Program-made: the position numbers and the translations under genes
The notes under the pieces: generated by a model
Database searches by the model: none
What the model saw: only the letters and a program-made list of their open reading frames with translations
What the model was told of the DNA's origin: nothing
Origin: Eledone cirrhosa
Lineage: Eukaryota
DNA length: 64,000 nucleotides
Assembly: GCA_964016885.1 (NCBI GenBank)
Contig: OZ024748.1
Coordinates: 27,404,001-27,468,000, forward strand
Reading direction: 5' to 3'
Shown here: piece by piece, positions 1,165-60,972 of the stretch
Layout of the letters: each line of letters opens with the position of its first letter
Numbering within the stretch: the first letter of the stretch is position 1

Positions 1165-1209
1165 TACGGGTAATTCAACTAGTATATATATATATATATA
1201 TATATATAT

Positions 1210-1323
1210 AACGAAGGAGATGGACCATAACGCACCAGAGTACTCAATACTTAGGGTAATAGAGTGGCGTTCAGAAATAGCCGTCGAAACGGCTTGAGCT
1301 CTGCCGTTGGGGTCAAACATTCT

Positions 1324-1325
<2 letters not shown>
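1210..1325. mobile_element. Family A fold-back element (copy 1, arms not overlapping)
   Basis: Tail segment in minus orientation joined to plus-orientation CAGAAATAGCCGTCGAAACGGCTTGAGCTCTGCCG; both ends abut (TA)n. Confidence 0.8.
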
Positions 1326-1368
<43 letters not shown>

Positions 1369-13900: not shown

Positions 13901-16900
13901 ACCAACACTATCACCACCACCAACAACTCCACTAACACCAACACTATCACCATCACCACCAACAACTCCACTAACACCAACACTATCATCACCACCAACA
14001 ACAACTCCACTAACACCAACACTATCACCACCACCACCAACAACTCCACTAACACCAACACTATCACCACCATCACCAACAACTCCACTAACACCAACAC
14101 TATCACCATCACCACCAACAACTCCACTAACACCAACACTATCACCATCACCACCAACAACTCCACTAACACCAACACTATCATCACCACCAACAACACC
14201 ACTAACACCAACACTATCATCATCACCACCAACAACTCCACTAACACCAACACTATCACCACCACCACCAACAACTCCACTAACACCAACACTATCATCA
14301 CCACCAACAACTCCACTAACACCAACACTATCATCACCACCACCACCAACTCCACTAACTCCAACACTATCATCATCACCACCAACAACTCCACTAACAC
14401 CAACACTATCACCACCACCACCAACAACTCCACTAACACCAACACTATCATCACCACCAACAACTCCACTAACACCAACACTATCATCACCACCAACAAC
14501 TCCACTAACACCAACACTATCACCACCACCACCACCAACTCCACTAACTCCAACACTATCACCATCACCACCAACAACTCCACTAACACCAACACTATCA
14601 CCACCACCACCAACAACTCCACTAACACCAACACTATCACCACCACCAACAACTCCACTAACACCAACACTATCATCACCACCAACAACTCCACTAACAC
14701 CAACACTATCACCACCACCACCAACAACTCCACTAACACCAACACTATCACCACCACCACCAACAACTCCACTAACACCAACACTATCATCATCACCACC
14801 AACAACTCCACTAACACCAACACTATCACCACCACCACCAACAACTCCACTAACACCAACACTATCACCACCACCACCAACAACTCCACTAACACCAACA
14901 CTATCACCATCACCACCAACAACTCCACTAACACCAACACTATCATCATCACCACCAACAACTCCACTAACACCAACACTATCATCATCACCACCAACAA
15001 CTCCACTAACACCAACACTATCACCACCACCAACAACTCCACTAACACCAACACTATCATCACCACCAACAACTCCACTAACACCAACACTATCACCACC
15101 ACCAACAACTCCACTAACACCAACACTATCACCACCACCAACAACTCCACTAACACCAACACTATCACCACCACCAACAACTCCACTAACACCAACACTA
15201 TCATCACCACCAACAACTCCACTAACACCAACACTATCATCACCACCAACAACTCCACTAACACCAACACTATCATCATCACCACCAACAACTCCACTAA
15301 CACCAACACTATCATCATCACCACCAACAACTCCACTAACACCAACACTATCACCATCACCACCAACAACTCCACTAACACCAACACTATCATCACCACC
15401 AACAACTCCACTAACACCAACACTATCACCACCACCACCAACAACTCCACTAACACCAACACTATCATCACCACCAACAACTCCACTAACACCAACACTA
15501 TCACCACCACCACCAACAACTCCACTAACACCAACACTATCATCACCACCAACAACTCCACTAACACCAACACTATCACCATCACCACCAACAACTCCAC
15601 TAACACCAACACTATCACCATCACCACCAACAACTCCACTAACACCAACACTATCATCACCACCAACAACTCCACTAACACCAACACTATCACCACCACC
15701 ACCAACAACTCCACTAACACCAACACTATCACCATCACCACCAACAACTCCACTAACACCAACACTATCATCATCACCACCAACAACTCCACTAACACCA
15801 ACACTATCATCATCACCACCAACAACTCCACTAACACCAACACTATCACCATCACCAACAACTCTACTAACACCAACACTATCATCATCACCACCAACAA
15901 CTCCACTAACACCAACACCACCACCACCACCAACAACTCCACTAACACCAACACTATCATCACCACCACCAACTACTCCACTAACACCAACACTATCATC
16001 ACCACCACCAACAACTCCACTAACACCAACACTATCATCATCACCACCAACAACTCCACTAACACCAACACTATCACCACCACCAACAACTCCACTAACA
16101 CCAACACTATCACCACCACCACCAACAACTCCACTAACACCAACACCACCATCACCACCAACAACTACACTAACACCAACACTATCACCATCACCAACAA
16201 CTCCACTAACACCAACACTATCATCACCACCACCAACAACTCCACTAACACCAACACTATCACCACCACCAACAACTCCACTAACACCAACACTATCACC
16301 ATCACCACCAACAACTACACTAACACCAACACTATCACCACCACCACCAACAACTCCACTAACACCAACACTATCATCATCATCACCAACAACTCCACTA
16401 ACACCAACACCACCATCACCACCAACAACTACACTAACACCAACACTATCACCATCACCAACAACTCTACTAACACCAACACTATCATCACCACCAACAA
16501 CAACTCCACTAACACCAAAACTATCACCACCACCACACAACAACTCCACTAACACCAACACTATCATCACCACCACCAACAACTCCACTAACACAAACAC
16601 TATCATCAACACCACCAACAACTCCACTAACACCAACACCACCACCACCACCAACAACTCCACTAACACCAACACTATCATCACCAACAACAACTCCACT
16701 AACACCAACACTATCACCACCACCACCACCAACAACTCCACTAACACCAACACCACCACCACCACCACCAACTCCACTAACACCAACACTATCATCACCA
16801 CCACCAACAACTCCACTAACACCAACACTATCATCACCAACAACAACTCCACTAACACCAACACTATCACCACCACCACCACCAACAACTCCACTAACAC

Positions 16901-19900
16901 CAACACCACTCACCACCACCAACAACTCCACTAACACCAACACTATCACCACCACCACCACCAACAACTCCACTAACACCAACACCACCACCACCACCAA
17001 CAACTCCACTAACACCAACACTATCATCACCACCAACAACAACTCCACTAACACCAACACTATCACCACCACCACCACCAACAACTCCACTAACACCAAC
17101 ACCTACCACCACCACCAACAACTCCACTAACACCAACACTATCACCACCACCACCACCAACAACTCCACTAACACCAACACCACCACCACCACCAACAAC
17201 TCCACTAACACCAACACTATCATCACCACCAACAACAACTCCACTAACACCAACACTATCATCACCAACAACAACTCCACTAACACCAACACTATCACCA
17301 CCACCACCACCAACAACTCCACTAACACCAACACCACCACCACCACCAACAACTCCACTAACACCAACACTATCACCACCACCACCACCACCAACTCCAC
17401 TAACACCAACACCACCACCACCACCAACAACTCCACTAACACCAACACTATCATCACCACCACCACCAACAACTCCACTAACACCAACACTATCACCACC
17501 ACCACCAACAACTCCACTAACACCAACACTATCACCATCACCACCAACAACTCCACTAACACCAACACTATCACCATCACCACCAACAACTCCACTAACA
17601 CCAACACTATCACCATCACCACCAACAACTCCACTAACACCAACACTATCATCACCACCGACAACAACTCCACTAACACCAACACTATCACCATCACCAC
17701 CAACAACTCCACTAACACCAAACACTATCACCATCACCACCAACAACTCCACTAACACCAACACTATCACCATCACCACCAACAACTCCACTAACACCAA
17801 CACTATCACCACCACCATCAACTCCACTAACACCAACACTATCATCACCACCAACAACTCCACTAACACCAACACTATCATCATCATCACCACCAACAAC
17901 TCCACTAACACCAACACTATCATCACCACCAACAACTCCACTAACACCAACACTATTCACCACCACCAACAACTCCACTAACACCACACTATCATCACCA
18001 CCAACAACTCCACTAACACCAACACTATCATCATCATCACCACCAACAACTCCACTAACACCAACACTATCACCACCACCAACAACTCCACTAACACCAA
18101 CACTATCACCACCACCAACAACTCCACTAACACCACACTATCATCACCACCAACAACTCCACTAACACCAACACTATCACCACCACCACCACCAACAACT
18201 CCACTAACACCAACACTATCATCATCATCACCACCAACAACTCCACTAACACCAACACTATCACCACCACCACCAACAACTCCACTAGACACCAACACTA
18301 TCACCACCACCACCAACAACTCCACTAACACCAACACTATCATCATCACCACCACAACTACACTAACACCAACACTATCACCACCACCAACAACTCCACT
18401 AACACCAACACTATCACCATCACCACCAACAACTCCACTAACACCAACACTATCACCACCACCACCAACAACAAAAACAACATCACCACTATCACCACCA
18501 CCATCACCATCATCACCACCACCACCAACAACACCAACGTCTCCAAAATCCCAACCACCACTAGCACCAACAACTCCACTAACACAAACACTATCATCAT
18601 CATCACCACCAACAACTCCACTAACACCAACACTATCACCACCACCAACAACTCACTAACACCAACACTATCACCACCACCACCAACAACTCCACTAACA
18701 CCAACACTATCACCACCACCACCACAACTCCACTAACACCAACACTATCATCATCACCACCAACAACTCCACTAACACCAACACTATCACCACCACCAAC
18801 AACTCCACTAACACCAACACTATCACCATCACCACCAACAACTCACTAACACCAACACTATCACCACCACCACAACTCCACTAACACCAACACTATCACC
18901 ACCACCACCAACAACTCCACTAACACCAACACTATCACCACCACCACCAACAACTCCACTAACACCAACACTATCATCACCACCACCAACAACTCCACTA
19001 ACACCAACACTATCACCACCACCACCAACAACTCCACTAACACCAACACTATCATCACCACCACCACAACTCCACTACCACCAACACTATCACCACCACC
19101 ACCAACAACTCCACTAACACCAACACTATCACCACCACCACCAACAACTCCACTAACACCAACACTATCATCACCACCACCACCACCAACAACTCCACTA
19201 CACCAACACTATCACCACCAACAAACAACTCCACTAACACCAACACTATCACCACCACCACCAACAACTCTACTAACACCAACACTATCACCATCACCAC
19301 CAACAACTCCACTAACACCAACACTATCACCACCAACAACAACTCCACTAACACCAACACTATCACCACCACCACCAACAACTCCACTAACACCAACACT
19401 ATCATCACCACCAACAACAACTCCACTAACACCAACACTATCACCATCACCACCAACAACTCCACTAACACCAACACTATCACCACCACCAACAACTCCA
19501 CTAACACCAACACTATCATCACCACCACAACTCCACTAACACCAACACTATCACCACCACCACCAACAGACTCCACTAACACCAACACTATCACCACCAC
19601 CACCAACAACTCCACTAACACCAACACTATCATCATCACCACCAACAACTCCACTAACACCACACTATCACCACCACCACCAACAACTCCACTAACACCA
19701 ACACTATCACCATCACCACCAACAACTCCACTAACACCAACACTATCACCACCACCAACAACTCCACTAACACCAACACTATCATCACCACCAACAACTC
19801 CACTAACACCAACACTATCACCATCACCACCAACAACTCCACTAACACCAACACTATCACCACCACCAACAACTCCACTAACACCAACACTATCATCACC

Positions 19901-22900
19901 ACCAACAACTCCACTAACACCAACACTATCACCACCACCAACAACTCCACTAACACCAACACTATCATCATCACCACCAACAACTCCACTAACACCAACA
20001 CTATCATCACCACCAACAACAACTCCACTAACACCAACACTATCACCATCACCACCAACAACTCCACTAACACCAACACTATCACCATCACCACCAACAA
20101 CTCCACTAACACCAACACTATCACCACCACCACCAACAACTCCACTAACACCAACACTATCATCACCACCAACAACTCCACTAACACCAACACTATCATC
20201 ACCACCACCAACAACTCCACTAACACCAACACTATCACCATCACCACCAACAACTCCACTAACACCAACACTATCACCATCACCACCAACAACTCCACTA
20301 ACACCAACACTATCATCACCACCAACAACAACTCCACTAACACCAACACTATCACCATCACCACCAACAACTCCACTAACACCAACACTATCACCATCAC
20401 CACCAACAACTCCACTAACACCAACACTATCATCACCACCAACAACTCCACTAACACCAACACTATCACCATCACCACCAACAACTCCACTAACACCAAC
20501 ACTATCATCACCACCAACAACAACTCCACTAACACCAACACTATCACCATCACCACCAACAACTCCACTAACACCAACACTATCACCACCACCACCAACA
20601 ACTCCACTAACACCAACACTATCACCACCACCACCAACAACTCCACTAACACCAACACTATCACCACCACCACCAACAACTCCACTAACACCAACACTAT
20701 CATCACCACCAACAACTCCACTAACACCAACACTATCACCACCACCACCAACAACTCCACTAACACCAACACTATCATCACCACCAACAACTCCACTAAC
20801 ACCAACACTATCACCACCACCACCAACAACTCCACTAACACAACACTATCATCATCACCACCAACAACTCTACTAACACCAACACTATCACCATCACCAC
20901 CAACAACTCCACTAACACCAACACTATCACCATCACCACCAACAACTCCACTAACACCACACTATCACCACCACCACCAACAACTCCACTAACACCAACA
21001 CTATCACCACCACCACCAACAACTCCACTAACACCAACACTATCATCATCACCACCAACAACTCCACTAACACCAACACTATCACCACCACCAACAACTC
21101 CACTAACACCAACACTATCATCACTCACCACCAACAACTCCACTAACACCAACACTATCACCACCACCAACAACTCCACTAACACCACACTATCATCACC
21201 ACCAACAACAACTCCACTAACACCAACACTATCACCACCACCACCAACAACTCCACTAACACCAACACTATCATCACCACCACCAACAACTCCACTAACA
21301 CCAACACTATCATCACCACCACCAACAACTCCACTAACACCAACACTATCATCATCACCACCAACAACTCCACTAACACCAACACTATCACCACCACCAA
21401 CAACTCCACTAACACCAACACTATCACCACCACCACCAACAAGTCCACTAACACCAACACTATCATCATCACCACCAACAACTCCACTAACACCAACACC
21501 ACCATCACCACCAACAACTACACTAACACCAACACTATCACCATCACCAACAACTCCACTAACACCAACACTATCATCACCACCACCAACAACTCCACTA
21601 ACACCAACACTATCACCACTACCAACAACTCCACTAACACCAACACTATCACCATCACCACCAACAACTACACTAACACCAACACTATCACCACCACCAC
21701 CAACAACTCCACTAACACCAACACTATCATCATCATCACCAACAACTCCACTAACACCAACACCACCATCACCACCAACAACTACACTAACACCAACACT
21801 ATCACCATCACCAACAACTCTACTAACACCAACACTATCATCACCACCAACAACAACTCCACTAACACCAAAACTATCACCACCACCACCAACAACTCCA
21901 CTAACACCAACACTATCATCACCACCACCAACAACTCCACTAACACAAACACTATCATCACCACCACCAACAACTCACTAACACCAACACCACCACCACC
22001 ACCAACACTCCACTAACACCAACACTATCATCACCAACAACAACTCCACTAACACCAACACTATCACCACCACCACCACCAACAACTCCACTAACACCAA
22101 CACCACCACCACCACCAACAACTCCACTAACACCAACACTATCATCACCACCACCAACAACTCACTAACACCAACACTATCATCACCAACAACAACTCCA
22201 CTAACAACAACACTATCACCACCACCACCACCAACAACTCCACTAACACCAACACCACCACCACCACCAACAACTCCACTAACACCCAACACTATCACCA
22301 CCACCACCACCAACAACTCCACTAACACCAACACCACCACCACCACCAACAACTCCACTAACACCAACACTATCATCACCACCAACAACAACTCCACTAA
22401 CACCAACACTATCACCACCAACAACAACTCCACTAACACCAACACTATCACCACCACCACCACCAACAACTCCACTAACACCAACACCACCACCACCACC
22501 AACAACTCCACTAACACCAACACTATCACCACCACCACCACCAACAACTCCACTAACACCAACACCACCACCACCACCAACAACTCCACTAACACCAACA
22601 CTATCATCACCACCAACAACAACTCCACTAACATCAACACTATCATCACCAACAACAACTCCACTAACACCAACACTATCACCACCACCACCACCAACAA
22701 CTCCACTAACACCAACACCACCACCACCACCAACAACTCCACTAACACCAACACTATCACCACCACCACCACCAACAACTCCACTAACACCAACACCACC
22801 ACCACCACCAACAACTCCACTAACACCAACACTATCATCACCACCAACAACAACTCCACTAACACCAACACTATCACCACCATCACCACCAACAACTACA

Positions 22901-25900
22901 CTAACACCAACACTATCATCACCAACAACAACTCCACTAACACCAACACTATCATCACCACCGACAACAACTCCACTAACACCAACACTATCACCACCAT
23001 CACCACCAACAACTCCACTAACACCAACACTATCACCACCACCAACAACTCCACTAACACCAACACTATCACCACCACCAACAACTCCACTAACACCAAC
23101 ACTATCACCACCACCACCAACAACTCCACTAACACCAACACTATCACCACCACCACCAACAACTCCACTAACACCAACACTATCACCACCACCACCAACA
23201 ACTCCACTAACACCAACACTATCACCATCACCACCAACAACTCCACTAACACCAACACTATCATCACCACCAACAACTCCACTAACACCACACTATCACC
23301 ATCACCACCAACAACTCCACTAACACCAACACTATCACCATCACCACCAACAACTCCACTAACACCAACCACTATCATCACCACCAACAACTCCACTAAC
23401 ACCAACACTAGTCACCATCACCACCAACAAGCTCAAACACTAACACCAACACTATCACCATCACCACCAACAACTCCACTAACACCAACACTATCACCAC
23501 CACCACAACTCCACTAACACCAACACTATCATCACCACCACCAACAACTCCACTAACACCAACACTATCACCACCACCAACAACTCCACTAACACCAACA
23601 CTATCACCACCACCAACAACTCCACTAACACCAACACTATCATCACCACCAACAACAACTCCACTAACACCAACACTATCACCACCACCAACAACTCCAC
23701 TAACACCAACACTATCATCACCACCAACAACTCCACTAACACCAACACTATCACCACCACCAACAACTCCACTAACACCAACACTATCACCACCACCAAC
23801 AACTCCACTAACACCAACACTATCATCACCACCAACAACAACTCCACTAACACCAACACTATCACCACCACCAACAACTCCACTAACACCAACACTATCA
23901 CCACCACCAACAACTCCACTAACACCAACACTATCACCACCACCAACAACTCCACTAACACCAACACTATCATCACCACCAACAACTCCACTAACACCAA
24001 CACTATCACCACCACCAACAACTCCACTAACACCAACACTATCACCACCAACAACAACTCCACTAACACCAACACTATCACCACCACCAACAACTCCACT
24101 AACACCAACACCACCATCACCACCACAACTACACTAACACCAACACTATCACCATCACCAACAACTCTACTAACACCAACACTATCATCACCACCAACAA
24201 CAACTCCACTAACACCAAAACTATCACCACCACCACCAACAACTCCACTAACACCAACACTATCATCACCACCACCAACAACTCCACTAACACAAACACT
24301 ATCATCACCACCACCAACACTCCACTAACACCACACACCACCACCACCAACAACTCCACTAACACCAACACTATCATCACCAACAACAACTCCACTAACA
24401 CCAACACTATCACCACCACCACCACCAACAACTCCACTAACACCAACACACCACCACCACCAACAACTCCACTAACACCAACACTATCATCACCACCACC
24501 AACAACTCCACTAACACCACACTAGCATCACCAACAACAACTCCACTAACAACAACACTATCCACCACCACCACCACTATCACTAACACCAACACCACCA
24601 CCACCACCAACAACTCCACTAACACCAACACTATCACCACCACCACCACCAACAACTCCACTAACACCAACACCACCACCACCACCACAACTCCACTAAC
24701 ACCAACACTATCATCACACCACCAACAACTATCCACTAACACTCAACACTATCACCACCAACAACAACTCCACTAACACCAACACTATCACCACCACCAC
24801 CACAACAACTCCACTAACACCAACACCACCACCACCACCAACAACTCCACTAACTCACACTATCACCAACACCACCACCACCAACAACTCAAACTCCAAC
24901 CAACCACCACACCAACACTCCACTAACACCACACGTCATCACCACCACAACAACTCCACTAACATCAACACTACATCACCACAAAAACTCACTAACACCT
25001 AACAACTCACACCTCACTACACCAACTCACTATCATCACCACCACCACCAACAACTCCCACTAACACAACACTATCTCACCACCACCAACCTCCACTACA
25101 CACTAACACTACACCACCACCACCACCAACAACTCCACTAACACCAACACCACTCACCACCACCAACAACAACTCCACTAACACCAACACTATCACCACC
25201 ATCCACCACCAACAACTCACTAACACCAACACTATCATCACCAACAACAACTCCACTAACACCAACACTATCATCACCACCGACAACAACTCCACTAACA
25301 CCAACACTATCACCACCATCACCACCAACAACTCCACTAACACCAACACTATCACCACCACCAACAACTCCACTAACACCAACACTATCATCACCACACA
25401 ACAACTCCACTAACACCAACACTATCACCACCACCACCAACAACTCCACTAACACCAACACTATCACCACCACCACCAACAACTCCACTAACACCAACAC
25501 TATCACCACCACCACCAACAACTCCACTAACACCAACACTATCACCACCACCACCAACAACTCCACTAACACCAACACTATCACCTCACCACCAACAACT
25601 CCACTAACACCAACACTATCACCACCACCACCAACAACTCCACTAACACCAACACTATCACCATCACCACCAACAACTCCACTAACACCAACACTATCAT
25701 CACCACCAACAACTCCACTAACACCAACACTATCACCATCACCACCAACAACTCCACTAACACCAACACTATCACCATCACCACCAACAACTCCACTAAC
25801 ACCAACACTATCATCACCACCAACAACTCCACTAACACCAACACTATCACCATCACCACCAACAACTCCACTAACACCAACACTATCACCATCACCACCA

Positions 25901-26591
25901 ACAACTCCACTAACACCAACACTATCACCACCACCAACAACTCCACTAACACCAACACTATCATCACCACCACAACAACTCCACTAACACCAACACTATC
26001 ACCACCACCAACAACTCCACTAACACCAACACTATCACCACCACCAACAACTCCACTAACACCAACACTATCACCACCACAACTCACTAACACCAACACT
26101 ATCCCACCACCAACAACTCCACTAACACCAACACTATCACCACCACCAACAACTCCACTAACACCAACACTATCACCACCACCAACAACTCCACTAACAC
26201 CACACTATCACCACCACCAACAACTCCACTAACACCAACACTATCACCACCACCAACAACTCCACTAACACCAACACTATCACCACCACCAACAACTCCA
26301 CTAACACCAACACTATCACACACCACCAACAACTCCACTAACACCAACACTATCACCACCACCAAACAACTCCACTAACACCAACACTAATCACCACCAC
26401 CAACAACTCCACTAACACCATCACTATCATCACCACCAACCAACTCCACTAACACCAACACTATCCACCTGAGCCACTCAACAACTCCACTAACACCAAC
26501 ACTATCACCACCACCAACAACTCCACTAACACTCAACACTAGTCATCCACCACCAACACCTCACTATCACCAACAACATCTCCACTAACAC
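10935..26591. repeat. 15.6-kb satellite, 33/36-bp unit CCAACAACTCCACTAACACCAACACTATCACCA(CCA)
   Basis: Hundreds of tandem units varying by CCA/TCA triplets; plus strand nearly G-free; ends at the gap. Confidence 0.97.
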
Positions 26592-26791
26592 NNNNNNNNN
26601 NNNNNNNNNNNNNNNNNNNNNNNNNNNNNNNNNNNNNNNNNNNNNNNNNNNNNNNNNNNNNNNNNNNNNNNNNNNNNNNNNNNNNNNNNNNNNNNNNNNN
26701 NNNNNNNNNNNNNNNNNNNNNNNNNNNNNNNNNNNNNNNNNNNNNNNNNNNNNNNNNNNNNNNNNNNNNNNNNNNNNNNNNNNNNNNNNNN
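26592..26791. other. Assembly gap (200 N)
   Basis: Run of N. Confidence 1.
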
Positions 26792-27267: not shown

Positions 27268-27271
<4 letters not shown>

Positions 27272-27810
27272 CAACACAAAATATAACTACTCCATTACCA
27301 AAGGTTTCTGGATCCCAGACAAAACGTCTGGATCGGTCGTCAGACAGAGATGTTATGGATAAAAGATATGAAATGAGATTTAAAATCTGTTAAAAATAGG
27401 AAGTGAGGCTGGAAAAATAACGGGAAATATACATCAGAAAAGAAGGGTAAGAAAAATAATATATAAAAGTATATAGCGATATAGATAAAGACATGTGTGT
27501 TCATACATGTACACACACATACACACATTCAGATAAAAGTAAAAAATATATATATGTATATATACATAGATGCATATATATATATACACATATACACATA
27601 TTTTTAACAGATTTTAAATCTCATTTCATATTTTTTATCGGTAACATCTCTGTCTGACGACCGATCTAGACGTATATTAATATTGTCTGGAATCCAGAAA
27701 CCTTTGGTAATGGAGTAGTTATATTTTGTGTTGTTCAATTTCTAATTAAATAGCTCTCTTCTATACATAGAGCACTCTTTTTTCCTTTGCTTTTTCTTAG
27801 GAATTACCTA
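27268..27810. mobile_element. Fold-back element with a hammerhead in each arm
   Basis: Arms 27268-27398 and 27599-27737 are inverted copies; right arm continues as a ~70-nt tail; flanked by (TA)n. Confidence 0.8.
27648..27715 (+). ncRNA. Type I hammerhead ribozyme
   Basis: CTCTGT-CTGACGA-[stem II GATCTAGAC...GTCTGGAATC]-GAAA-CC/TTT/GG-TA-ATGGAG; stem I CTCTGT:ATGGAG; mirror copy on minus strand at 27290-27349. Confidence 0.7.
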
Positions 27811-35967: not shown

Positions 35968-36132
35968 GGTGGCTGCCAACTCGTTTTCGAGTACGGCCAC
36001 TACTTTATATCCATGTAGGAAAACCCCTACCAATGCGCTGAACGAGTGTGACTTTTTAGTCCAGCCAGTGACTTGAAAACTCTGGTACAAACACTACACT
36101 TGTGACAATTATTGGCACATAGTACTGGGCCC
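35968..36132 (-). mobile_element. RTE-derived element, short 3' fragment
   Basis: Same family; ORF 36027-36218 ends [23 protein letters not shown]. Confidence 0.75.
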
Positions 36133-36330
36133 ATACATACATACATACATACATACATACATACATACATACATACATACATACATACATACATACATAC
36201 ATACATACATACATACATACATACCGGTACAGTTAATACCTAACTCTCTACACCCCACCCACACACCCCTCAACATACTTTCTTACCTCCCTTACAAACA
36301 CTACCTACCGACCATTATAATCACTATATA

Positions 36331-36515
36331 AGGGCGGTGGATTAGCAGTATCGGTAGAGGGTCGGACGCCATGCTTTCCAGCATAGTTACGTCCCTTTAC
36401 GATCTGAGTTCAAATCCCGCCGAGGTTGACTTTGCCTTTCATCCTTACGGGGTCGATAAAATAAAGTACCAGTAATGCACTGGGTAATTGCTGGCCTTGT
36501 GCCTAAAGTAGAAAC
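36331..36515 (+). mobile_element. tRNA-type SINE
   Basis: GGGCGGTGGATTAGCAGTATCGG...GAGTTCAAATCCCGCCGAGGTTGACTTTGCC; homologous to 30606-30822. Confidence 0.85.
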
Positions 36516-36707
36516 AATTATAATCACTATATACGTATATCACCTCTCTATCTCTCTCTCTATATATATATAGAGAGAGAGAGAGGGGAGAAAGAGAGAG
36601 AGGGGAAAGTTGAATGATAGATATATACACACACGTATACATACACCCACATGCATATATACGCATGTAATATGCATACATATATCTGTATACACGCACA
36701 CACACAC

Positions 36708-36765: not shown

Positions 36766-36878
36766 CGAAGGAAAAGTGGTAAGGAACCAGGTGGACCATA
36801 ACGCACCAAAGTACTCAATACTCGTACAGAATTAGCCGTCGAAACGGCTTGAGCTCAGCCGTCGGGGTCTTACTTACT

Positions 36879-36880
<2 letters not shown>
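36765..36880. mobile_element. Family A fold-back element (copy 2)
   Basis: Truncated tail arm plus short arm ending TCC|TA. Confidence 0.85.
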
Positions 36881-36950
<70 letters not shown>

Positions 36951-36953
<3 letters not shown>

Positions 36954-37151
36954 AAGGAAATGTGGTAAGGAACCAGGTGGACCATAACGCACCAAAGTAC
37001 TCAATACTTAGGGTAGTAGAGTGGGTAATAGGAACGAGTAGGACCCCGACGGCTGAACTCAAGCCGTTTCGATGGCTAATTCTGGACGCATTAGCCGTCC
37101 AGAATTAGCCGTCGAAACGGCTTGAGCTCAGCCGTCGGGGTCCTACTCGTT

Positions 37152-37153
<2 letters not shown>
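36951..37153. mobile_element. Family A fold-back element (copy 3)
   Basis: Long arm (-) 36951-37087, short arm (+) 37098-37153, in (TA)n. Confidence 0.9.
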
Positions 37154-37230
<77 letters not shown>

Positions 37231-37315
37231 AAAAGGTAAACAGAAATGACAACACACTCGGTACAGTATATGGAAGGAATATATTAGGTTAACGCTTGAA
37301 ATAACAGAAAGAGGG

Positions 37316-37351
37316 TCTTAACGTTTCGGACGCTAGTCCTTCATCAGAAGA
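37316..37351 (-). ncRNA. Minimal type I hammerhead ribozyme (Penelope pLTR type)
   Basis: TCTT-CTGATGA-A-GGAC/TAGC/GTCC-GAAACGT-T-AAGA; palindromic loopless stem III (ACGT); 3' end of same element family recurs at about 42247-42282. Confidence 0.8.
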
Positions 37352-37552
37352 AAGAATGAGAAATAAGATATATTGAGGGGACGGGCGGGTTGAAATATAT
37401 ATATTTATATATTTATGTGTGTGTGTAACGAGATGAGACATCATAGTTTGTGGCCGGGTGCTTCACAGGCTTTCGAATCTCATGCCAGGAGGGAACAGAC
37501 ATAACGTGCAAGAAGTGGTCAAGCTTTGTATGGAGCAGACTATATTCATTTT

Positions 37553-37766
37553 CGGTGGAGTGGCACTATCGATAGAGCGTCAGACACTATGCTTTGCGGT
37601 ATAGAGTTATGGCCCTTTATGTTCTGAGTTCAAATCCGCCGAGGTTAGCTTTGCCCCCCCCCCCCCTACGGTGCCGATAAAATAAAGTACCAGTAATGTA
37701 CTGTGGCCGATTTAATTGACTCCCCGCCCCCACCAACTTGCTGGCCTTCCTTGTGCCTATAATAGA
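37553..37766 (+). mobile_element. tRNA-type SINE (decayed)
   Basis: Homologous to 36331-36515. Confidence 0.8.
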
Positions 37767-37867
37767 TATTATTTTATTAGCCTTAATAAAATGAATATTA
37801 AAACTTTACTTCGCTATTGAAGTACTCTTTTCTCTCAACCGTCACACGGATATATATCTATATATCG

Positions 37868-37918
<51 letters not shown>

Positions 37919-37920
<2 letters not shown>

Positions 37921-38087
37921 CGGGGGAAATGTGGTAAGGAACCAGGTGGACCATAACGCACCAAAGTACTCAATACTTAGGGTAGTAGAGTAGGTGATAG
38001 GAAGGTTTCGACGGCTAATTTTGGACTATTTAGTCCAGAATTAGCCGTCGAAACGGCTTGAGCTCAGCCGTCGGGGTCCTACTCGTT

Positions 38088-38089
<2 letters not shown>
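37919..38089. mobile_element. Family A fold-back element (copy 4)
   Basis: Longest junction: GACGGCTAATTTTGGACTA-TT-TAGTCCAGAATTAGCCGTC. Confidence 0.9.
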
Positions 38090-38132
<43 letters not shown>

Positions 38133-38134
<2 letters not shown>

Positions 38135-39106
38135 TGGTTGTCCATCGTAAACGATGATGACATCTTCTTTATTGTTGTTCCCGTCTGCCGTGGGCACGAA
38201 GGTGGCTGCGGAGGCCGATCCTTGACTTGCAGGTCCGGGGACAGTCGAGGCAGGAGAAGAGGCCGGAGTCAGTCCGGCAACTCCCAGAGGTTACCTCCAC
38301 CTCTCGCCCATCGCCGCAGGGCTTTGGGAATGCACGCTAAAGAAGAAACCTGTGCGGGAAAGGTTTATAGTGGGAGGGCCAGTGCACAGTGACGGCCCCA
38401 CTCGCTCGGCCGCAGAAGCCAGAATCGGGTGGTACGGAGGACCGTCACGACCAGAGACTTCCTTGACTGCAGTGGATGGCCACGACATCTGTAGTGCCTT
38501 GCCGTGCCCTAGCGCTCCACAGCGCTTGCTGTCGCCGCCTTCGTGACCGTTGGGACGATGTTGTCCTCCTCCATTCTCTCCGCCGGGTCCAGTCTTCGCA
38601 TGCAGGGCCAGGCATCCCCTATCCAACTCACCGGGGGGGGGGGGGGTTCAGACCCGTCCGGCTACCCTCAACCTGGTTCGGCCGGCCAGCCAAGGCGGTT
38701 TACAGGGGTGTGGCCGCTGTCGCATGCTACAGCTTCTTAGGACCACAGGTGAGAGCTGAGTGTCAGGTGGGGCCCAATGCAGGACGAGCTGTCCTGAAAA
38801 GTACATGGCTAGCCCTCCCTACAGAGGTACATGTCCCTCCCTGACACCCCAGGCATATACGCACGCATATACATACACATACATATGTACATGTATATAT
38901 ACATATTTACACATTTTTGGATGGCCGTTGACTCTTATCAGTTCTTCCACCCTCTGTCAGGTTTTGTTTTTTGTCCTACAGGGTGTCCAAAATCACCCTC
39001 CTCACCAAGTAAACTTGGTGGGGTTGCCAGTTTAGTCGCCGACGACCCGACCATGCGACAGGTTGTACTGGGTTATATGTTACCAATAGCACTCAAGAGT
39101 GACCCT
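38133..39106 (-). mobile_element. Non-autonomous RTE-derived retroelement (~970 bp)
   Basis: Minus strand encodes LFSCLDCPRTCKSRIGLRSHLRAHGRREQQ* (RTE ORF2 C-terminal zinc-finger remnant), short 3' UTR then (TA)n; no recognisable RT; 5' head shared with 34713-35315. Confidence 0.8.
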
Positions 39107-39128
39107 ACACATACATATATATATATAT

Positions 39129-39312
39129 GAAAAAGTATGACCCCGACAGCAGAGCTCAAGCCGTTTCGACGGCTATTTCCAGAAATAGCCGTCGAAACGG
39201 CTTGAGCTCTGCCGTCGGGGTCATACTTTTTCCTATTTCCCACTCTACTACCCTAAGTATTGAGTACTCTGGTGCGTTATGGTCCATCTGGTTCCTTACC
39301 ACAACTCCTTTG

Positions 39313-39314
<2 letters not shown>
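39129..39314. mobile_element. Family A fold-back element (copy 5)
   Basis: Short arm (-) then long arm (+), in (TA)n. Confidence 0.9.
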
Positions 39315-39380
<66 letters not shown>

Positions 39381-39382
<2 letters not shown>

Positions 39383-39476
39383 GTTTCTACTTTTGGCACA
39401 AGGCCAGCAATTACCCCAGTGCATTACTGGTACTTTATTTTATCGACCTCGTAAGGATGAAAGGCAAAGTTAACCT
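39381..39476 (-). mobile_element. SINE 3' fragment
   Basis: Reverse complement of about 36425-36517. Confidence 0.8.
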
Positions 39477-39706
39477 ATATATAATGATGATAATAAATGT
39501 ATTCATAGAAAGAATTAACTTGAGATTGAACTTTAGACAATCTTGAGTTGATTCTTTCTATGTGTGAGTACATTTGTTATTATCATTAGATATGTGTGTG
39601 TGTGTGTGTGTGTGTATGTGAGAGTGTGTGTATGTGACGGTTTAACTCTCTTCTAAGCGTGAAACTAATTAATGCATCTTCTTGTTTGTTAGTTTCTTAT
39701 TTTCTT

Positions 39707-39815
<109 letters not shown>

Positions 39816-39957: not shown

Positions 39958-40401
39958 AAGTAGAAGGGATATTTAATTTGTTGGAAATTCAACAAATATA
40001 AATGTTTATAACTGATTCTGAGCACCCGACAAATTTTCTGGAGTATAATATACAATGATATTAAATAAATGGAAACTATATTTATAAAACCATATTTATA
40101 CTATTATATATATTTCAAGGGTACCAAAAACTTTGGTACGCTTTTATCAGATAAAATACAAAGAGTGTTTTATGAATTTTGACATAACCAAGGAAACCAT
40201 ACCTAATCAGTTGCATTTTCCTTGGGTAGACTACCAAGGAAAATGCAACTGATTAGGTATGGTTTCCTTGGTTATGTCAAAATTCATAAAACACTCTTTG
40301 TATTTTATCTGATGAAAGCGTACCAAAGTTTTTGCTACCCTTGAAATATATATAATAGTATAAATATGGTTTTATAAATATAGTTTCCATTTATTTAATA
40401 T

Positions 40402-40409
<8 letters not shown>
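39958..40409. mobile_element. Fold-back element with hammerhead
   Basis: ~175-bp near-perfect arms (40051-40225 / 40234-40409) around GTAGACTA; left arm has ~90-nt tail. Confidence 0.85.
40305..40358 (+). ncRNA. Type I hammerhead ribozyme
   Basis: TTAT-CTGATGA-AAGCGTACCAAAG/TTTTTGCTACCCTT-GAAA-TATATA-TA-ATAG; the mirror arm restores the stem II pair (TTTGGTAC). Confidence 0.7.
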
Positions 40410-40467: not shown

Positions 40468-40652
40468 GAAAATGTATGACCCCGACGGCAGAGCTCAAGC
40501 CGTTTCGACGGCTATTTCTGGACTATAGCCGTCGAAACGGCTTGAGCTCTGCCGTCGGGGTCATATATTTTCCTATTACCCACTCTACTACCCTAAGTAT
40601 TGAGTACTCTGGTGCGTTATGGTCCATCTGGTTCCTTACCATAACTCCTTCG

Positions 40653-40654
<2 letters not shown>
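40468..40654. mobile_element. Family A fold-back element (copy 6)
   Basis: As copy 5. Confidence 0.9.
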
Positions 40655-40745
<91 letters not shown>

Positions 40746-40961: not shown

Positions 40962-41330
40962 ATGTAGGAGGTGAGTTTTATTGTAGTACAATAAAGCAAT
41001 GCAGATATCGGATAAGAAGCACTCTACAGTTTGTAGGACTGGAGTATGCATAATATAAGATCAAAAGATGGTTAAAGGAGTTCCATGTATTTTATTATGC
41101 GCATTTCAAAAACAAACATCATCATGCAATAATATTTGTGTTTTCATCATCTCCTGTATTTTATTATGCGCATTTCAAAAACAAACATCATCATGCAATA
41201 ATATTTGTGTTTTCATCATCTCCTGTTTTATCTGATGAAAACATAAATATTATTGCATGATGATGTTTGTTTTTGAAATGCGCATAATAAAATACATGGA
41301 ACTCCTTTAACCATCTTTTGATCTTATATA
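40962..41330. mobile_element. Fold-back element with hammerhead
   Basis: Left long arm with tail and a tandem ~70-bp duplication of the ribozyme segment; right short arm ends GATCTTA|TA. Confidence 0.85.
41224..41294 (+). ncRNA. Type I hammerhead ribozyme
   Basis: TGTTTTAT-CTGATGA-[long stem II AAACATAAATATTATTGCATGATGATGTTTGTTTTT]-GAAA-TGCGCA-TA-ATAAAATA; 8-bp stem I, palindromic stem III ATGCGCAT. Confidence 0.85.
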
Positions 41331-42280: not shown

Positions 42281-42327
<47 letters not shown>

Positions 42328-42357
42328 ATAAACGTATATATACATACATATGTATAT

Positions 42358-42771
42358 GGTGGCTGCCAACTCGTTTTCGAGTACGGCCACTACTTTATAT
42401 CCATGTAGGAGAACCCCTACTGATGCGCTGAACGAGTGTGACTTTTTAGTCCAGCCAGCGACTTGAAAGCTCTGGTACAAACACTACACTTGTGACAATT
42501 ATTGACACATAGTGCTGGGCCCATGGTACCATGTGACGACAAATGCAGAGAGATCTCCAGATATAAAGCAATGCCTGTGCCGTGAAGCTTTTATAGTGAG
42601 CAAAGGCACTGCACAAAGCCAGTCCCACTCTCTTAACCAAGATGATATTTACCAAAAAGAAGAACAAGTCAACATCATTGGATACCATCAGGGTTGCAGG
42701 TGTTATATCAGAGTTTTCCTTCTCCTAGAATTCTGCCTTGACAAAGGCTAAGGGGTCATCTCTCCCGGAAG
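42358..42771 (-). mobile_element. RTE-derived element
   Basis: Same family as 35361 and 49044. Confidence 0.75.
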
Positions 42772-42825
42772 ATATATGTATATATATATATATATACATA
42801 CATATACATACATATATATACATAC

Positions 42826-44890: not shown

Positions 44891-45236
<346 letters not shown>

Positions 45237-45861
45237 TATATATGTATATATATATATACACACACACACACACTTACATAGATATGTTTGTATTTATTTA
45301 CCTATATGTATACATATATGTATACATATATGTGCGTGTGTGTGCATGTGTGTGTGTGTGTACATACTTATATATATTAACACATTAATGTACACACACA
45401 CACGCTCACCCCGTATAAAATATACTGGACAACGCAAAATTCTTAATGTTTTATGCTGGGGAAAAAAAACACACACACATATTTAGCCTCTATGTATGTA
45501 TGAATGTATACATGTTTGTATGTATGTGTGTATATATGTGTGTATGTATGTGTGTGTGTATGTATGTACGTATGAATCTATGTATGTTTGTATGTATGTA
45601 TGTGTGTATGTATGTATGTATGTATGTACGTATGAATCTATGTATGTTTGTATGTATGTATGTATGTATATATGTGTGTATGTATGTGAGTGTGTATGTA
45701 TGTATGTACGTATGAATCTATGTATGTTTGTATGTATGTATGTGTGTATGTATGTGTGTATGTACGTATGAATGTATGTATGTTTGTATGTATGTATGTG
45801 TATGTATGTATGTATGTATGTACGTATATATGAATGTATGTATGAATGTATGAACGTATGT

Positions 45862-49678: not shown

Positions 49679-49781
<103 letters not shown>

Positions 49782-49792
49782 ATATATCTGTT

Positions 49793-49823
49793 CTCCTTAT
49801 GAAGGGCTAATGTCCGAAACGTC
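49793..49823 (+). ncRNA. Degenerate minimal hammerhead
   Basis: CTTATGA-A-GGGC/TAAT/GTCC-GAAACGTC; G5 mutated, stem I lost. Confidence 0.5.
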
Positions 49824-49911
49824 GTCCCCTACCCCCCACTCTCAAGTGTGAAACTAAAAACAATACCATTTGTACTGCCTCTCCGTTTTTTGTTCTCTGT
49901 CCATTTAATCA

Positions 49912-49969
<58 letters not shown>

Positions 49970-51625: not shown

Positions 51626-51633
<8 letters not shown>

Positions 51634-51807
51634 TTATTTATTAAAATAACAGATTAAAGTTTAAGCAAAGAATCGCTGCTTTCACCCAATCTTTAATCTG
51701 TTATTTTAATAAATATTTGCTCTACGGTTCTTATATATTTGATATATATTTATCCTTATCGAGCCCTCTTTGTATTTTAGTCTTCAAATTTATTATTATT
51801 ACTATGT
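51626..51807. mobile_element. Short fold-back remnant with tail
   Basis: TTTATTAAAATAACAGATTAAAG / CTTTAATCTGTTATTTTAATAAA arms, ~95-nt right tail, (TA)n both sides. Confidence 0.6.
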
Positions 51808-54336: not shown

Positions 54337-54490
54337 AAAGGAAGTGTGGTAAGGAACCAGATGGACCATAACGCACCAGAGTACTCAATACTTAGGGTAG
54401 TAGAGGGGGAAATAGGAAAAAGTATGACCCCGACGGCAGAGCTCAAGCCGTTTCGACGGCTATTTCTGGAAATAGAAATAGCCCTCGAAA
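54337..54490. mobile_element. Family A element (copy 8, short arm abbreviated)
   Basis: Long arm (-) plus AGAAATAGCCCTCGAAA. Confidence 0.85.
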
Positions 54491-57280: not shown

Positions 57281-57421
57281 ATTTAGTCCAGAAATAGCCG
57301 TCGAAACGGCTTGAGCTCTGCCGTCGGGGTCATACTTTTTCCTATTTCCCACTCTACTACTCTAAGTATTGAGTACTCTGGTGCGTTATGGTCCATCTGG
57401 TTCCTTACCACAACTCCTTTG

Positions 57422-57423
<2 letters not shown>
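57281..57423 (+). mobile_element. Family A element (copy 9, long arm only)
   Basis: ATTTAGTCCAGAAATAGCCGTCGAAAC...CTCCTTTGTT|ATATA. Confidence 0.85.
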
Positions 57424-57457
<34 letters not shown>

Positions 57458-57585: not shown

Positions 57586-57638
<53 letters not shown>

Positions 57639-57640
<2 letters not shown>

Positions 57641-57811
57641 CGAAGGAAATGTGGTAAGGAACCAGGTAGACCATAATGCACCAAAGTACTCAATACTTGG
57701 GGTAGTAGAGTGGGTAATAGGAACCAGTAAGACCCCGACGGCTGAGCTCAAGCCGTTTCGACAATTAGCCGTCGAAACGGCTTGAGCTCAGCCGTCGGGG
57801 TCTTACTGGTT

Positions 57812-57813
<2 letters not shown>
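57639..57813. mobile_element. Family A fold-back element (copy 10)
   Basis: Both arms share variant GGAACCAGTAAGACCCC. Confidence 0.9.
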
Positions 57814-57848
<35 letters not shown>

Positions 57849-57851
<3 letters not shown>

Positions 57852-58038
57852 GAAGGAAATGTGGTACGGAACCAGGTGGACCATAACGCACCAAAGTACT
57901 CAATACTTAGGGTAGTAGAGTGGGTAATAGGAACGGGTAGGACCCCGACGGCTGAGCTCAAGCCGTTTCGACGGCTAATTCTGTCCAGAATTAGCCGTCG
58001 AAACGGCTTGAGTTCAGCCGTCGGGGTCCTACTCGTTC
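57849..58038. mobile_element. Family A fold-back element (copy 11)
   Basis: Long arm (-), short arm (+). Confidence 0.9.
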
Positions 58039-58440
58039 ATATATATATATATATCTTTTGTGTCCTCTGTTCTTTCCTCTCTTTCTTTTTCTCACTTACT
58101 CTCTCTGTTCCTTCCATGTTGAAGCTGTTTATATAGGACTAACGTCCAGACGAACAATTTTTTCTCTCACTTTCTTTTCTTCGCTAATATGTTCGTCTTT
58201 GTTTCTATCTCTTCTTCCCAGTAGCAATATTGGTTTATACCAAATTCTATTTATTTGTAAACAGTCGAAAAACCAATTGTCCTGTCTTGTGTCCATTTGA
58301 TATTGTATTATGTGCACTGGTGATAGTGGTATCGACCATAAGAACCAAAACTCCGAAGACCTCCAGCGGTCGACTGATGAGAAGGGATTGTGGTGTCTTT
58401 CGTCCGTTTTTCCGTTGTCTTCTCACACCTTTTTTTATTC

Positions 58441-58765: not shown

Positions 58766-58773
<8 letters not shown>

Positions 58774-59433
58774 GGGAAGTAAGGTTCTATACAAAACAGT
58801 GAATATAGAGAAAAGGTGAAGTTGGAAATAGCACGGAAAATATATTTTAAGGTCTGTTTTTTTTTATTTTCCTTTCTTTGATTCGTCAAAGTGATATTAT
58901 TGAAAAGATGATATTATTGAAAAAATGAGAGGACAATTCTTTTTAAAAAATAGATTTATAATGTATATAAAGTATATAAAGTGTATATAAAGTATTACCG
59001 GTTTCGATGTATTATTAAAATTCATCTTATCAAATGTTGAGTATTACAATTAAAAAGAATTAATAGGAATTAAAAACTAAAAATTAAAGATTTATAATTA
59101 AGTGTTGGAGTAAGTTTTTTTCCCATCTTCCTTGGATTCTCCAGTCCAGCTCTGAGCAAGGAAGATGGGGAAAAACTTACTCCAACACTTAATTATAAAT
59201 CTTTAATTTTTAGTTTTTAATTCCTATTAATTCTTTTTAATTGTAATACTCAACATTTGATAAGATGAATTTTAATAATACATCGAAACCGGTAATACTT
59301 GTTATACTTTATATACTTTATATTCATTATAAAAGCTTTTTTTAAAAAGAATTGTCCTCTCATTTTTTCAATAATAAGAAAAGAAAAGCAGCAGACCCTA
59401 AAATATATTTTCCGTGCTATTTCCAACTTCACC

Positions 59434-59435
<2 letters not shown>
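58766..59435. mobile_element. Large fold-back element with U3-A8 hammerhead-like motif in both arms
   Basis: Arms about 58815-59135 / 59157-59432; plus 59255-59296 AT-TTGATAA-GATG...CATC-GAAAC-CG-GTA-AT. Confidence 0.8.
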
Positions 59436-59523
<88 letters not shown>

Positions 59524-60557: not shown

Positions 60558-60764
60558 CATGCATATATATATATATATATATACACATACATGCATATAT
60601 ATATATGTGTGTGTTTACTTATATAAACATACACATGTATATGCAGATACACATATCTATACATACACGTATATATAAACGCATATATATACATTCACAT
60701 ATATATACAAATATATTTATTTTTATTTACACATACAGTATATATACAAATATATTTATTTATG

Positions 60765-60806
<42 letters not shown>

Positions 60807-60808
<2 letters not shown>

Positions 60809-60965
60809 AACGAGTAGGATCCCGACGGCTGAGCTCAAGCCGTTTCGACGGCTTGAGCTCAGCCGTCGGGGTCCTACTCGTTCCTATTACCCACTCTACT
60901 ACCCTAAGTATTGAGTACTTTGGTGCGTTATGGTCCACCTGGTTCCTTACCACATTTCCTTCGTT
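60807..60965. mobile_element. Family A fold-back element (copy 12)
   Basis: Short arm (-), long arm (+), junction at TTTCGACGG. Confidence 0.9.
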
Positions 60966-60972
60966 ATATATA

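Follow-up and report, generated by a model that had tools for sequence, protein, structure and literature searches.

Why should the copies of a short repeat all end, on their upstream side, inside what looks like a self-cleaving ribozyme? The question is raised by a 64,000-nucleotide stretch of the Eledone cirrhosa genome (assembly GCA_964016885.1, contig OZ024748.1, positions 27,404,001 to 27,468,000 of the forward strand; hereafter the window), which consists of microsatellite-rich animal DNA with one N gap at 26592-26791 and holds 12 copies of a repeat that we call family A. The original prediction had counted the same 12 copies, and this number is borne out both by BLAST with inspection and by matches to a 16-mer around the GAAA box of the repeat (19 in the window at three or fewer mismatches, against 0.00 expected). 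Positions within the repeat are given relative to the G of GAAA, which is set at 0 and corresponds to window position 57303 in copy 9, our reference, and 38050 in copy 4. On balance, and from sequence motifs, we lean toward an answer in which the limit of the arms would be set by a transcription start inside loop II of the ribozyme.

The copies are almost certainly two-armed stubs of the kind left by Penelope-like elements (PLEs). A long antisense arm and a short sense arm stand head to head in 11/12 copies, copy 9 being a lone long arm, and (TA)n runs, the target of endonuclease-containing (EN+) PLEs, flank all 12. The 3' end of the short arm is fixed at +43 in 10/11 copies and that of the long arm falls at +105 to +122 (about +120) in 12/12, both abutting (TA)n; the stretch between these two fixed ends forms a one-sided tail of ~79 nt, and the same ends are seen in public sequencing runs. 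The centres, i.e., the arm junctions, differ in every copy. Over positions +3 to +42 the two arms of one copy differ on average at 1.4 of 40 sites vs. 4.4 for arms of different copies (7 pairs; 10/5040 permutations), and private variants are common to both arms (a loop III variant in copy 7, another in copy 10). This greater likeness within copies suggests that both arms derive from one source element. Two subfamilies of six copies each, A and B, differ at -9, at pair 6 of stem III and just past a conserved GGGGTC block. We considered and rejected a miniature inverted-repeat transposable element (MITE) or other DNA transposon with terminal inverted repeats, as the outer ends are unequal by the ~79-nt tail and form no such repeats, and the interior is not constant.

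An inverted 5'-truncated copy, a one-sided tail and a bias for (TA)n make up the footprint described for PLEs (PMC8557442; also PMC3846280, PMC8969392), and octopus Naiad and Hydra families target (TA)n according to the supplement of PMC8557442, in the available part of which no family matches the motifs of family A. With the EN+ PLEs of PMC8557442 and PMC3846280, as far as these describe them, family A shares head-to-head arms, a one-sided 3' tail, a (TA)n target without readable duplication and hammerhead parts upstream of the 3' ends. It differs from them in its tail (~79 nt rather than the usual 30-40 bp; PMC8557442), in that all arms stop in the ribozyme, in the placement of promoter-like motifs within stem-loop II and in having no linked open reading frame (ORF). 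In vitro, the anole PLE PAc (a Poseidon of Anolis carolinensis) cleaves an AT-rich target on both strands and extends each of them; its reverse transcriptase (RT) uses two internal RNA start sites, the stretch between them becoming the tail (PMC11167929). The template is uncleaved RNA, and catalytic hammerhead mutants insert normally in that assay (PMC11167929). Family A resembles PAc, as described there, in its two fixed internal starts, the extension of both strands, the AT-rich target and an apparently uncleaved RNA template; however, the PAc ORF begins at stem II and its template carries a complete hammerhead, whereas family A has a possible ATG ~85 nt past GAAA and a template that seems to begin in loop II.

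As for the ribozyme itself, we consider it very likely that the arms carry the 3' half of a real type I hammerhead, judging from the order and conservation of its parts. Residue numbers such as C11.1 and C17 follow what we take to be the standard hammerhead scheme as applied to copy 4. On the sense strand of that copy, the predicted stem II 3' strand, which ends in C11.1 (38039..38049), is followed by the GAAA core box (G12-A15.1; 38050..38053), stem III with a palindromic GAGCTC loop (38053..38071), a GUC triplet (38070..38072) with predicted cleavage after C17 (+22), the GGGGTC block as predicted stem I 3' strand (38073..38078) and then a variable stretch, an architecture like that in PMC4209133. 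Across 19 aligned arms, the A15.1-U16.1 pair is present in all, GGGGTC is kept in 18 with the nucleotides after it varying between subfamilies, and GUC is found in 16, the remaining three having single changes. Stem III is 5-6 bp long (6 bp in subfamily A, 5 bp in subfamily B) with 91% of its cells paired; the sixth pair forms in 10/19 arms and is U.U in the other nine. The order of parts had been proposed from the letters alone and stands, whereas the 6-bp stem III that went with it does not extend beyond those 10 arms. The absence of CTGANGA from every copy, also proposed, holds as well (15 matches in the window vs. 10.7 expected, all outside the 12 copies). That the copies lack the catalytic half and are ribozyme-dead is thus true by construction, and it is unremarkable for a stub because PAc hammerhead mutants insert normally (PMC11167929).

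Metazoan PLE type I hammerheads, as described in PMC4209133, share with family A the GAAA, an NUH triplet, a palindromic loop III, a larger-than-usual helix II and a predicted 6-bp helix I. Their helix III, however, has 1-2 bp vs. 5-6 bp in family A, which further differs from them by a loop II of ~31 nt, by the repetition between its stem II and stem III 3' strands (the last 7 nt of the former repeat the latter plus C17 in subfamily A) and by the CUGANGA box not being observed. Could this be mimicry, with a GAAA that by chance lies where a 6-7-nt motif alternates with its complement, so that a PLE end or a MITE-like palindrome seems to have stems II and III? The motif does alternate, CTGANGA is unseen, none of the six stem III pairs shows compensatory changes among the 19 aligned arms, the surviving half folds no better than shuffles (z -0.14 to -0.63), and Rfam returned no hammerhead in two small-region searches and only low-complexity microRNA-type matches among the 150 of 326 listed for the whole window. 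The Rfam blank weighs little, because Rfam also missed the complete minimal hammerhead of another element at 37347. We regard such mimicry as decidedly improbable: C11.1, GAAA, A15.1-U16.1, GUC, the palindromic loop III and the conserved 6-nt block occur in hammerhead order and spacing, in neighboring families built in the same way, complete hammerheads lie about as far from the end of the short arm (by eye), and the outer ends are not terminal inverted repeats.

The upstream edge is shared by nearly all arms. The 23 arm starts lie at -22 (two arms), -19/-18 (three), -17 (five), -16 (two), -14, -13 (two), -12, -11, -9, -7, -3, +3, +46 and +62, i.e., 10/23 at -19 to -16 and 2/23 at -22, and no arm in the window (0/23) reaches past -22 (upper 95% bound on read-through 12%). 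Breaks number 21 in the 382 nt between +3 and -22 vs. two in the 1,662 nt downstream of +4. A start within about 25 nt upstream of GAAA, as first proposed, therefore holds for 20/23 arms and fails for three long arms (+3, +46 and +62), and the break of copy 12 is indeed at the GAAA (+3). The limit depends on position and not on length, since arms whose priming sites are separated by 79 nt end in one common zone. None of the 20 arms that cross the GUC site end there.

The edge recurs in raw sequencing reads from another study, whose depth is 0.20 of its peak at -20 to -16 and 0.09 at -25 to -21, the last two 3' bins being at 0.61 and 0.41; part of this fall comes from clipping at the -9 variant. 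Among the joints listed (15 of 41), 10 of the 13 between opposite strands have one end at -18 to -15, and the loose ends listed (24 of 567) include some with mixed flanks at -18, where two runs of one sample contribute 63 and 75 contigs, and others at -23 (535 reads). Other two-armed families of the window behave differently, with the 5' box kept in 5/6 arms, among them palindromes of 355 and 635 nt (Fisher P 5e-5), the control arms in this count having been chosen by inverted structure and not by the CTGANGA box. Loss of palindromes or an assembly artefact was accordingly rejected as the cause of the edge, since palindromes of that size survive and 5/6 arms keep their 5' box. The base just before the start is C in 4/5 of the arms that begin at -17 (window ~1274, 36828, 37088 and 37096) and A in other copies. 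Candidate explanations for this C are untemplated addition, a backward slip by one base or a variant not yet seen, the slip explaining only the short arm of copy 3.

To look beyond the window, four public sequencing runs were aligned to copy 9. Runs of other organisms (B-I) and one wastewater run, each with under 5 matching words, were left aside, and no RNA run was listed as containing the family. Family A is very abundant (21,168 and 22,339 contigs aligned in two runs of one sample), and some copies run upstream of -22: 36 contigs in run X1 (consensus agreement 0.58) and five in run X4 (agreement 0.82), the X4 upstream loose ends having a median of 73 letters. The X4 extension is not an inverted arm, because its 73 letters align to nothing in the reference. 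In both consensuses a non-palindromic loop of ~31 nt is preceded by the complement of the stem II 3' strand, which covers 9 nt in X4 (chance ~4e-5); in X1, 8 of the 9 partner letters fall inside the 30-letter stretch over which the upstream consensus is visible. Given this partner strand and loop, stem II is likely real, and the parent element probably has one. A stem II had been predicted for the parent, and to that extent the prediction is supported, although not for the long stem deduced from copy 4. Just beyond the visible stretch is where CTGANGA is expected, with the closing G10.1-C11.1 pair at or beyond its edge. Depth in X4 was ~3 times greater in the tail than in the hammerhead part, unlike in X1 and X2, and was not used as evidence.

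The longer copies also bear on whether all copies could have inherited the limit from one founder, either a non-autonomous stub that was already truncated or a piece of RNA broken at a fixed point. No ORF is linked to family A, and non-coding hammerhead elements that use PLE machinery have been reported (bioRxiv 10.64898/2026.07.22.740005; PMC7229834, in the parts that treat them). A single founder is nonetheless quite unlikely, slightly more so than hammerhead mimicry: the same limit is found in at least two subfamilies and several minor variants, junctions differ from copy to copy, and copies longer than the limit exist in the public runs. These runs also hold a third subfamily, in which stem III and the nucleotides after GGGGTC are altered but the GAGCTC palindrome is not (loose ends before 57337; 80 contigs in X2 and 1,134 reads in X15). 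Pattern scans returned no match in metagenomes, including by a gapped scan, or in prokaryote genomes; in viral contigs one pattern scan returned none and three 16-mer matches were taken as chance.

The known non-coding elements differ from family A in form. Animal non-LTR (long terminal repeat) retrozymes (PMC7229834; bioRxiv 10.64898/2026.07.22.740005) are, as far as these sources describe them, likewise short, apparently non-coding, hammerhead-bearing and thought to use PLE machinery. They are, however, tandem monomers, each with a complete hammerhead, whereas family A consists of solitary inverted stubs shorter than one ribozyme. With no tandem unit and no complete hammerhead in the 12 window copies, a tandem retrozyme was rejected as the identity of family A.

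How the two arms are joined speaks to a second idea of the original prediction, that the two complementary DNA (cDNA) ends anneal through both strands of a long stem II. The partner strand exists in the longer copies, and copy 12 is joined through a 6-nt match. Yet such annealing would leave the whole ~31-nt loop II at the centre, which is the case in 0/11 junctions, and we consider it very improbable, the least supported of the explanations weighed here. Instead, 10/11 junctions have overlaps of 0-2 nt or small inserts, and the mean overlap of 1.1 nt vs. 0.6 by chance (P ~0.05) is driven by copy 12. In that copy the stem II 3' strand is matched by the stem III 5' strand and not by its own partner in stem II, which the repetition between the 3' strands of the two stems makes possible. 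The palindrome in copy 4 had been read as a long stem II; the letters are as quoted, and what they form is the inverted joint of two arms (long arm end at -19/-18, short arm start at -22). Backward re-reads occur at the junctions of copies 3 and 8.

What, then, would stop both arms within loop II? The reading toward which we lean is that stem-loop II also serves as a core promoter for RNA polymerase II. A TATA-like box would lie where the stem II 5' strand ends, one initiator would lie at -18 and a second at -22, and the long loop II would act as the TATA-initiator spacer. By analogy with the anole PLE in vitro, a GIY-YIG endonuclease would cut both strands of the AT-rich target, and each cut end would prime cDNA at one of the two internal RNA sites. 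Both cDNAs would run off the RNA 5' end, or stop somewhat short of it, and their ends would then be joined by end-joining with 0-2 nt of overlap. The 5' terminal-repeat copy in such an RNA would lack CUGANGA and could not cut itself, while the complete 3' copy could.

Three motifs fit this proposal. TTAGTC at -20 to -15 (38030..38035 on the forward strand in copy 4) fits the initiator consensus TYAGTY (PMC6483594, where it is given for Drosophila), with the +1 A at -18 (38032). No other initiator-type match occurs along the 144 nt of the copy 9 arm, the rate in the window being 0.0008 per base, and the arm starts cluster at this match. Position -22 is in turn the +1 of a TCAKTY match when the two upstream letters agreed by both loose-end consensuses are included. 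A TATA box is expected about 30 nt upstream of a start, and a one-mismatch STATAWAWR begins 29-31 nt upstream of -18 in the two loose-end consensuses (by eye; chance 0.025 in this AT-rich sequence). The joint chance of these promoter motifs is ~4e-4, calculated post hoc and for AT-rich sequence. A promoter at this place is not without parallel, as PLE promoters sit in the pseudo-LTR (pLTR; PMC2377424), and the rotifer Penelope pLTR, as described in PMC3846280, includes a putative TATA box and initiator and has an inverted arm 37 bp shorter than the full pLTR. Rotifer pLTRs also contain the ORF start (PMC3846280), a precedent for the ATG in the family A tail. In a plant retrozyme, a complete hammerhead at the 5' end causes the transcript to be cut and keeps it from being translated unless the ribozyme is mutated (PMC12029980), which would give an element a reason to start its RNA inside the ribozyme.

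The most serious competitor is a stall: a PLE two-armed insertion from full-length RNA in which the RT pauses or falls off in loop II. The 3' strands of stems II and III being repeats of one another, the new cDNA would fold back over GAAA into a 6-bp hairpin, and stem II could re-form behind the enzyme, leaving a short AU-rich hybrid. Consistent with this, of the hairpins that the growing cDNA of the arm can form, the strongest (-6.1 to -6.7 kcal/mol) adjoins a 9-nt hybrid at -19 to -16, the modal break, and that same competing hairpin is the minimum-energy fold of the surviving half. Backward re-reads in copies 3 and 8 and the skipping of stem III in copy 4 also fit. The strength of the hairpin is by itself insufficient, contrary to what had been suggested from the letters, as cDNA hairpins of -6.1, -6.9 and -8.9 kcal/mol, against -6.1 here, did not stop synthesis in other families of the window, and a hairpin-minus-hybrid score is not specific to family A. 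The absence of read-through in 23 arms would moreover rarely be expected of a pause, and the initiator and TATA-like matches are left unaccounted for. We thus see a stall as unlikely, if still the explanation to which we give most room after a transcription start.

It is also conceivable that RNA or DNA processing in loop II, and not a start of transcription, sets the limit, with the pyrimidine-AG at -22 to -17 serving as a splice acceptor or factor footprint, or with the AT-preferring endonuclease of the element nicking the newly made copy at the ATT in this stretch, followed by trimming. The -22 to -17 stretch does consist of pyrimidines ending in TAG, PLE introns near the hammerhead are described in PMC4209133 and PMC2377424, the anole enzyme favors 5'-ATT-3' (PMC11167929), and a sharp edge tailing off to shorter arms would suit a cut with resection. 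Against processing, however, a common upstream exon is found at none of the 11 junctions, the bases upstream of the AG are kept in arms, other families cross long AT-rich stretches unbroken, and the backward re-reads indicate events during synthesis. Processing is accordingly improbable in our view, well below a stall.

Several observations weigh against a transcription start in loop II. The initiator consensus is that of Drosophila (PMC6483594), which is a weak point, and the TATA-like box and the -22 initiator depend on majority letters of the loose ends (agreement 0.58 and 0.82; 36 and 5 contigs) read post hoc. No downstream promoter element (DPE) was seen by eye at +28 to +32. The modal break in the window is -17 (five arms), one base inside the proposed +1; a cap-derived extra G occurs at no junction, and the C that precedes four of the five -17 arms is unexplained in three. 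The backward re-reads of copies 3 and 8 suit a stall as well as they suit a template end. In the evidence from public runs, restriction-site-associated DNA (RAD) reads sample few loci, and the loose ends and joints are listed in part (24/567 and 15/41). Neither CTGANGA nor the stem I 5' strand was seen in the 30-letter upstream consensus, just past which they are expected, and in the window no PLE ORF (RT plus GIY-YIG) is linked to family A, only an ATG with 11 codons in the tail. In addition, the anole and Drosophila virilis PLEs have their hammerhead wholly in the 5' part of the RNA (PMC11167929; PMC4209133; PMC2377424, as far as each describes it), and a start inside the ribozyme would therefore not be general. 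Neither a transcription start within a PLE hammerhead nor arms that end in loop II turned up as reported features in a literature searched mostly without subscription papers.

The reading can be taken further, although we hold the following to be doubtful. Stem-loop II of the hammerhead of this PLE may be its core promoter, with transcription bisecting the ribozyme; the capped 5' end could then not self-cleave, only the 3' pLTR copy could, and an R-like repeat would result, the stubs representing strong-stop cDNAs. In retroviruses and LTR elements, minus-strand strong-stop DNA arises by priming near the RNA 5' end and running off at the transcription start. The likeness to family A is one we infer, and the family A products would differ in being primed by nicked target DNA and not by a tRNA, in being integrated with two arms and in making no transfer to the 3' end. 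If this were true, both ends of the RNA would share a repeat (about -18 to +22) comparable to the R region of LTR elements, the numerous hairpin stubs would have arisen by integration of strong-stop cDNAs, and a transfer across the repeat would be required to make full-length copies. The 5' half would keep the whole substrate strand and the palindromic loop III, and the complete 3' copy could then cut it by strand exchange and yield a unit-length circle.

Both the construction of pseudo-LTRs by PLEs and the role of PLE hammerheads are presented as open questions in PMC8557442 and PMC11167929. The shared upstream edge of a very abundant family records either a template end or an enzyme stop. 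Should it mark a start inside the ribozyme, an element could carry a self-cleaving motif in each terminal repeat and its mRNA would still retain the cap; should it mark a stall, family A would be an ordinary PLE remnant with an awkward hairpin.

The individual copies are placed as follows, with the breaks of their long and short arms. Copy 1 (1209..1327) breaks at +46 and -17, and copy 2 (36766..36882) at +62 and -17. Copy 3 has a tail-carrying long arm on the reverse strand (36951..37087; 5' break at -17), a junction insert (37088..37096, forward strand) and a short forward-strand arm from -17 to +43 (37097..37156), followed by (TA)n; by inspection, 7/9 letters of the insert re-read the stem II 3' strand, which suggests a backward template slip on a 3-nt GTC match. 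Copy 4 consists of a long reverse-strand arm (37920..38028) with an internal skip from about +36 to +7 and a 5' break at -19/-18 by eye, and a short forward-strand arm (38028..38092) from -22 to +43, one of the two furthest-reaching arms. The breaks lie at -16 and -12 in copy 5 (39129..39315; 2-nt overlap), at -9 and -19/-18 in copy 6 (40468..40655), and at -13 and -19/-18 in copy 7 (45044..45244). Copy 8 (54337..54490) has its long arm break at -16, a short arm from -13 to +4 and a small re-read duplication at the junction. The single long arm of copy 9 (57281..57424, forward strand) extends from -22 to +122, its one-sided tail being the ~79 nt from +44 to +122 (57346..57424). Copy 10 (57638..57816) breaks at -3 and -11, copy 11 (57849..58042) at -14 and -17, and copy 12 (60804..60966) at +3 and -7, this being the sole junction with a long (6-nt) microhomology.

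At the tail end of copy 9, on the forward strand, an ATG is followed by 11 open codons (57388..57423), with several synonymous differences between copies. This is weakly suggestive of the start of a parent ORF.

The window also holds other hammerhead elements. A complete minimal type I hammerhead of a different element lies on the reverse strand at 37312-37355, with CTGATGA at 37347, a 4-bp stem II, GAAA and a palindromic minimal helix III; the element itself spans 37211-37394, inside the stretch 36951..38089 of the original prediction, and has a related degenerate copy at 49770-49931. The 355-nt palindrome at 39959-40406 (98% complementary, with a 94-nt one-sided tail) keeps a minimal hammerhead with a long stem II in both arms, and the starts of the two arms, ~112 nt upstream of GAAA, agree to within 1-2 nt, which is what run-off from a single RNA end would give. 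The palindrome of 635 nt at 58767-59456 is older (81%) and has a 40-nt tail; by eye, its hammerhead-like core is the U3-A8 variant described for schistosome PLEs in PMC4209133. The two-armed element at 40962-41324 has a 96-nt tail and a hammerhead whose stem II is long and AU-rich; its long arm stops at the CUGAUGA box, and its ribozyme 3' half is duplicated in tandem. An outward-pointing pair of yet another family (27269-27400 on the reverse strand and 27605-27750 on the forward strand) combines CTGACGA, a ~10-bp stem II, a 3-bp stem III and a GUA triplet, with loop II sequences that differ between the two. Between (TA)n runs at 51630-51806, a self-inverted AT-rich segment (6-86) with a one-sided extension of ~90 nt is possibly another two-armed stub, too short to reach the ribozyme. 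No hammerhead part was found in this segment or in the self-inverted segment at 39380-39709, and both are outside the control count given above.

Among the remaining repeats, a SINE-like (short interspersed nuclear element) sequence is common to 35968-36560, 37405-37871, 39380-39709, 42322-42778 and 60607-60769, and it may resemble an octopus SINE. Directly after copy 4, a GC-rich stretch (38135-38850) with ORFs of up to 125 aa is similar to the untranslated end of a LINE (long interspersed nuclear element). Finally, ~16 kb of a degenerate short-period repeat with a GC skew close to -1 occupies 10100-26500 and ends at the N gap, and a related inverted array is located at 63.3-63.8 kb.

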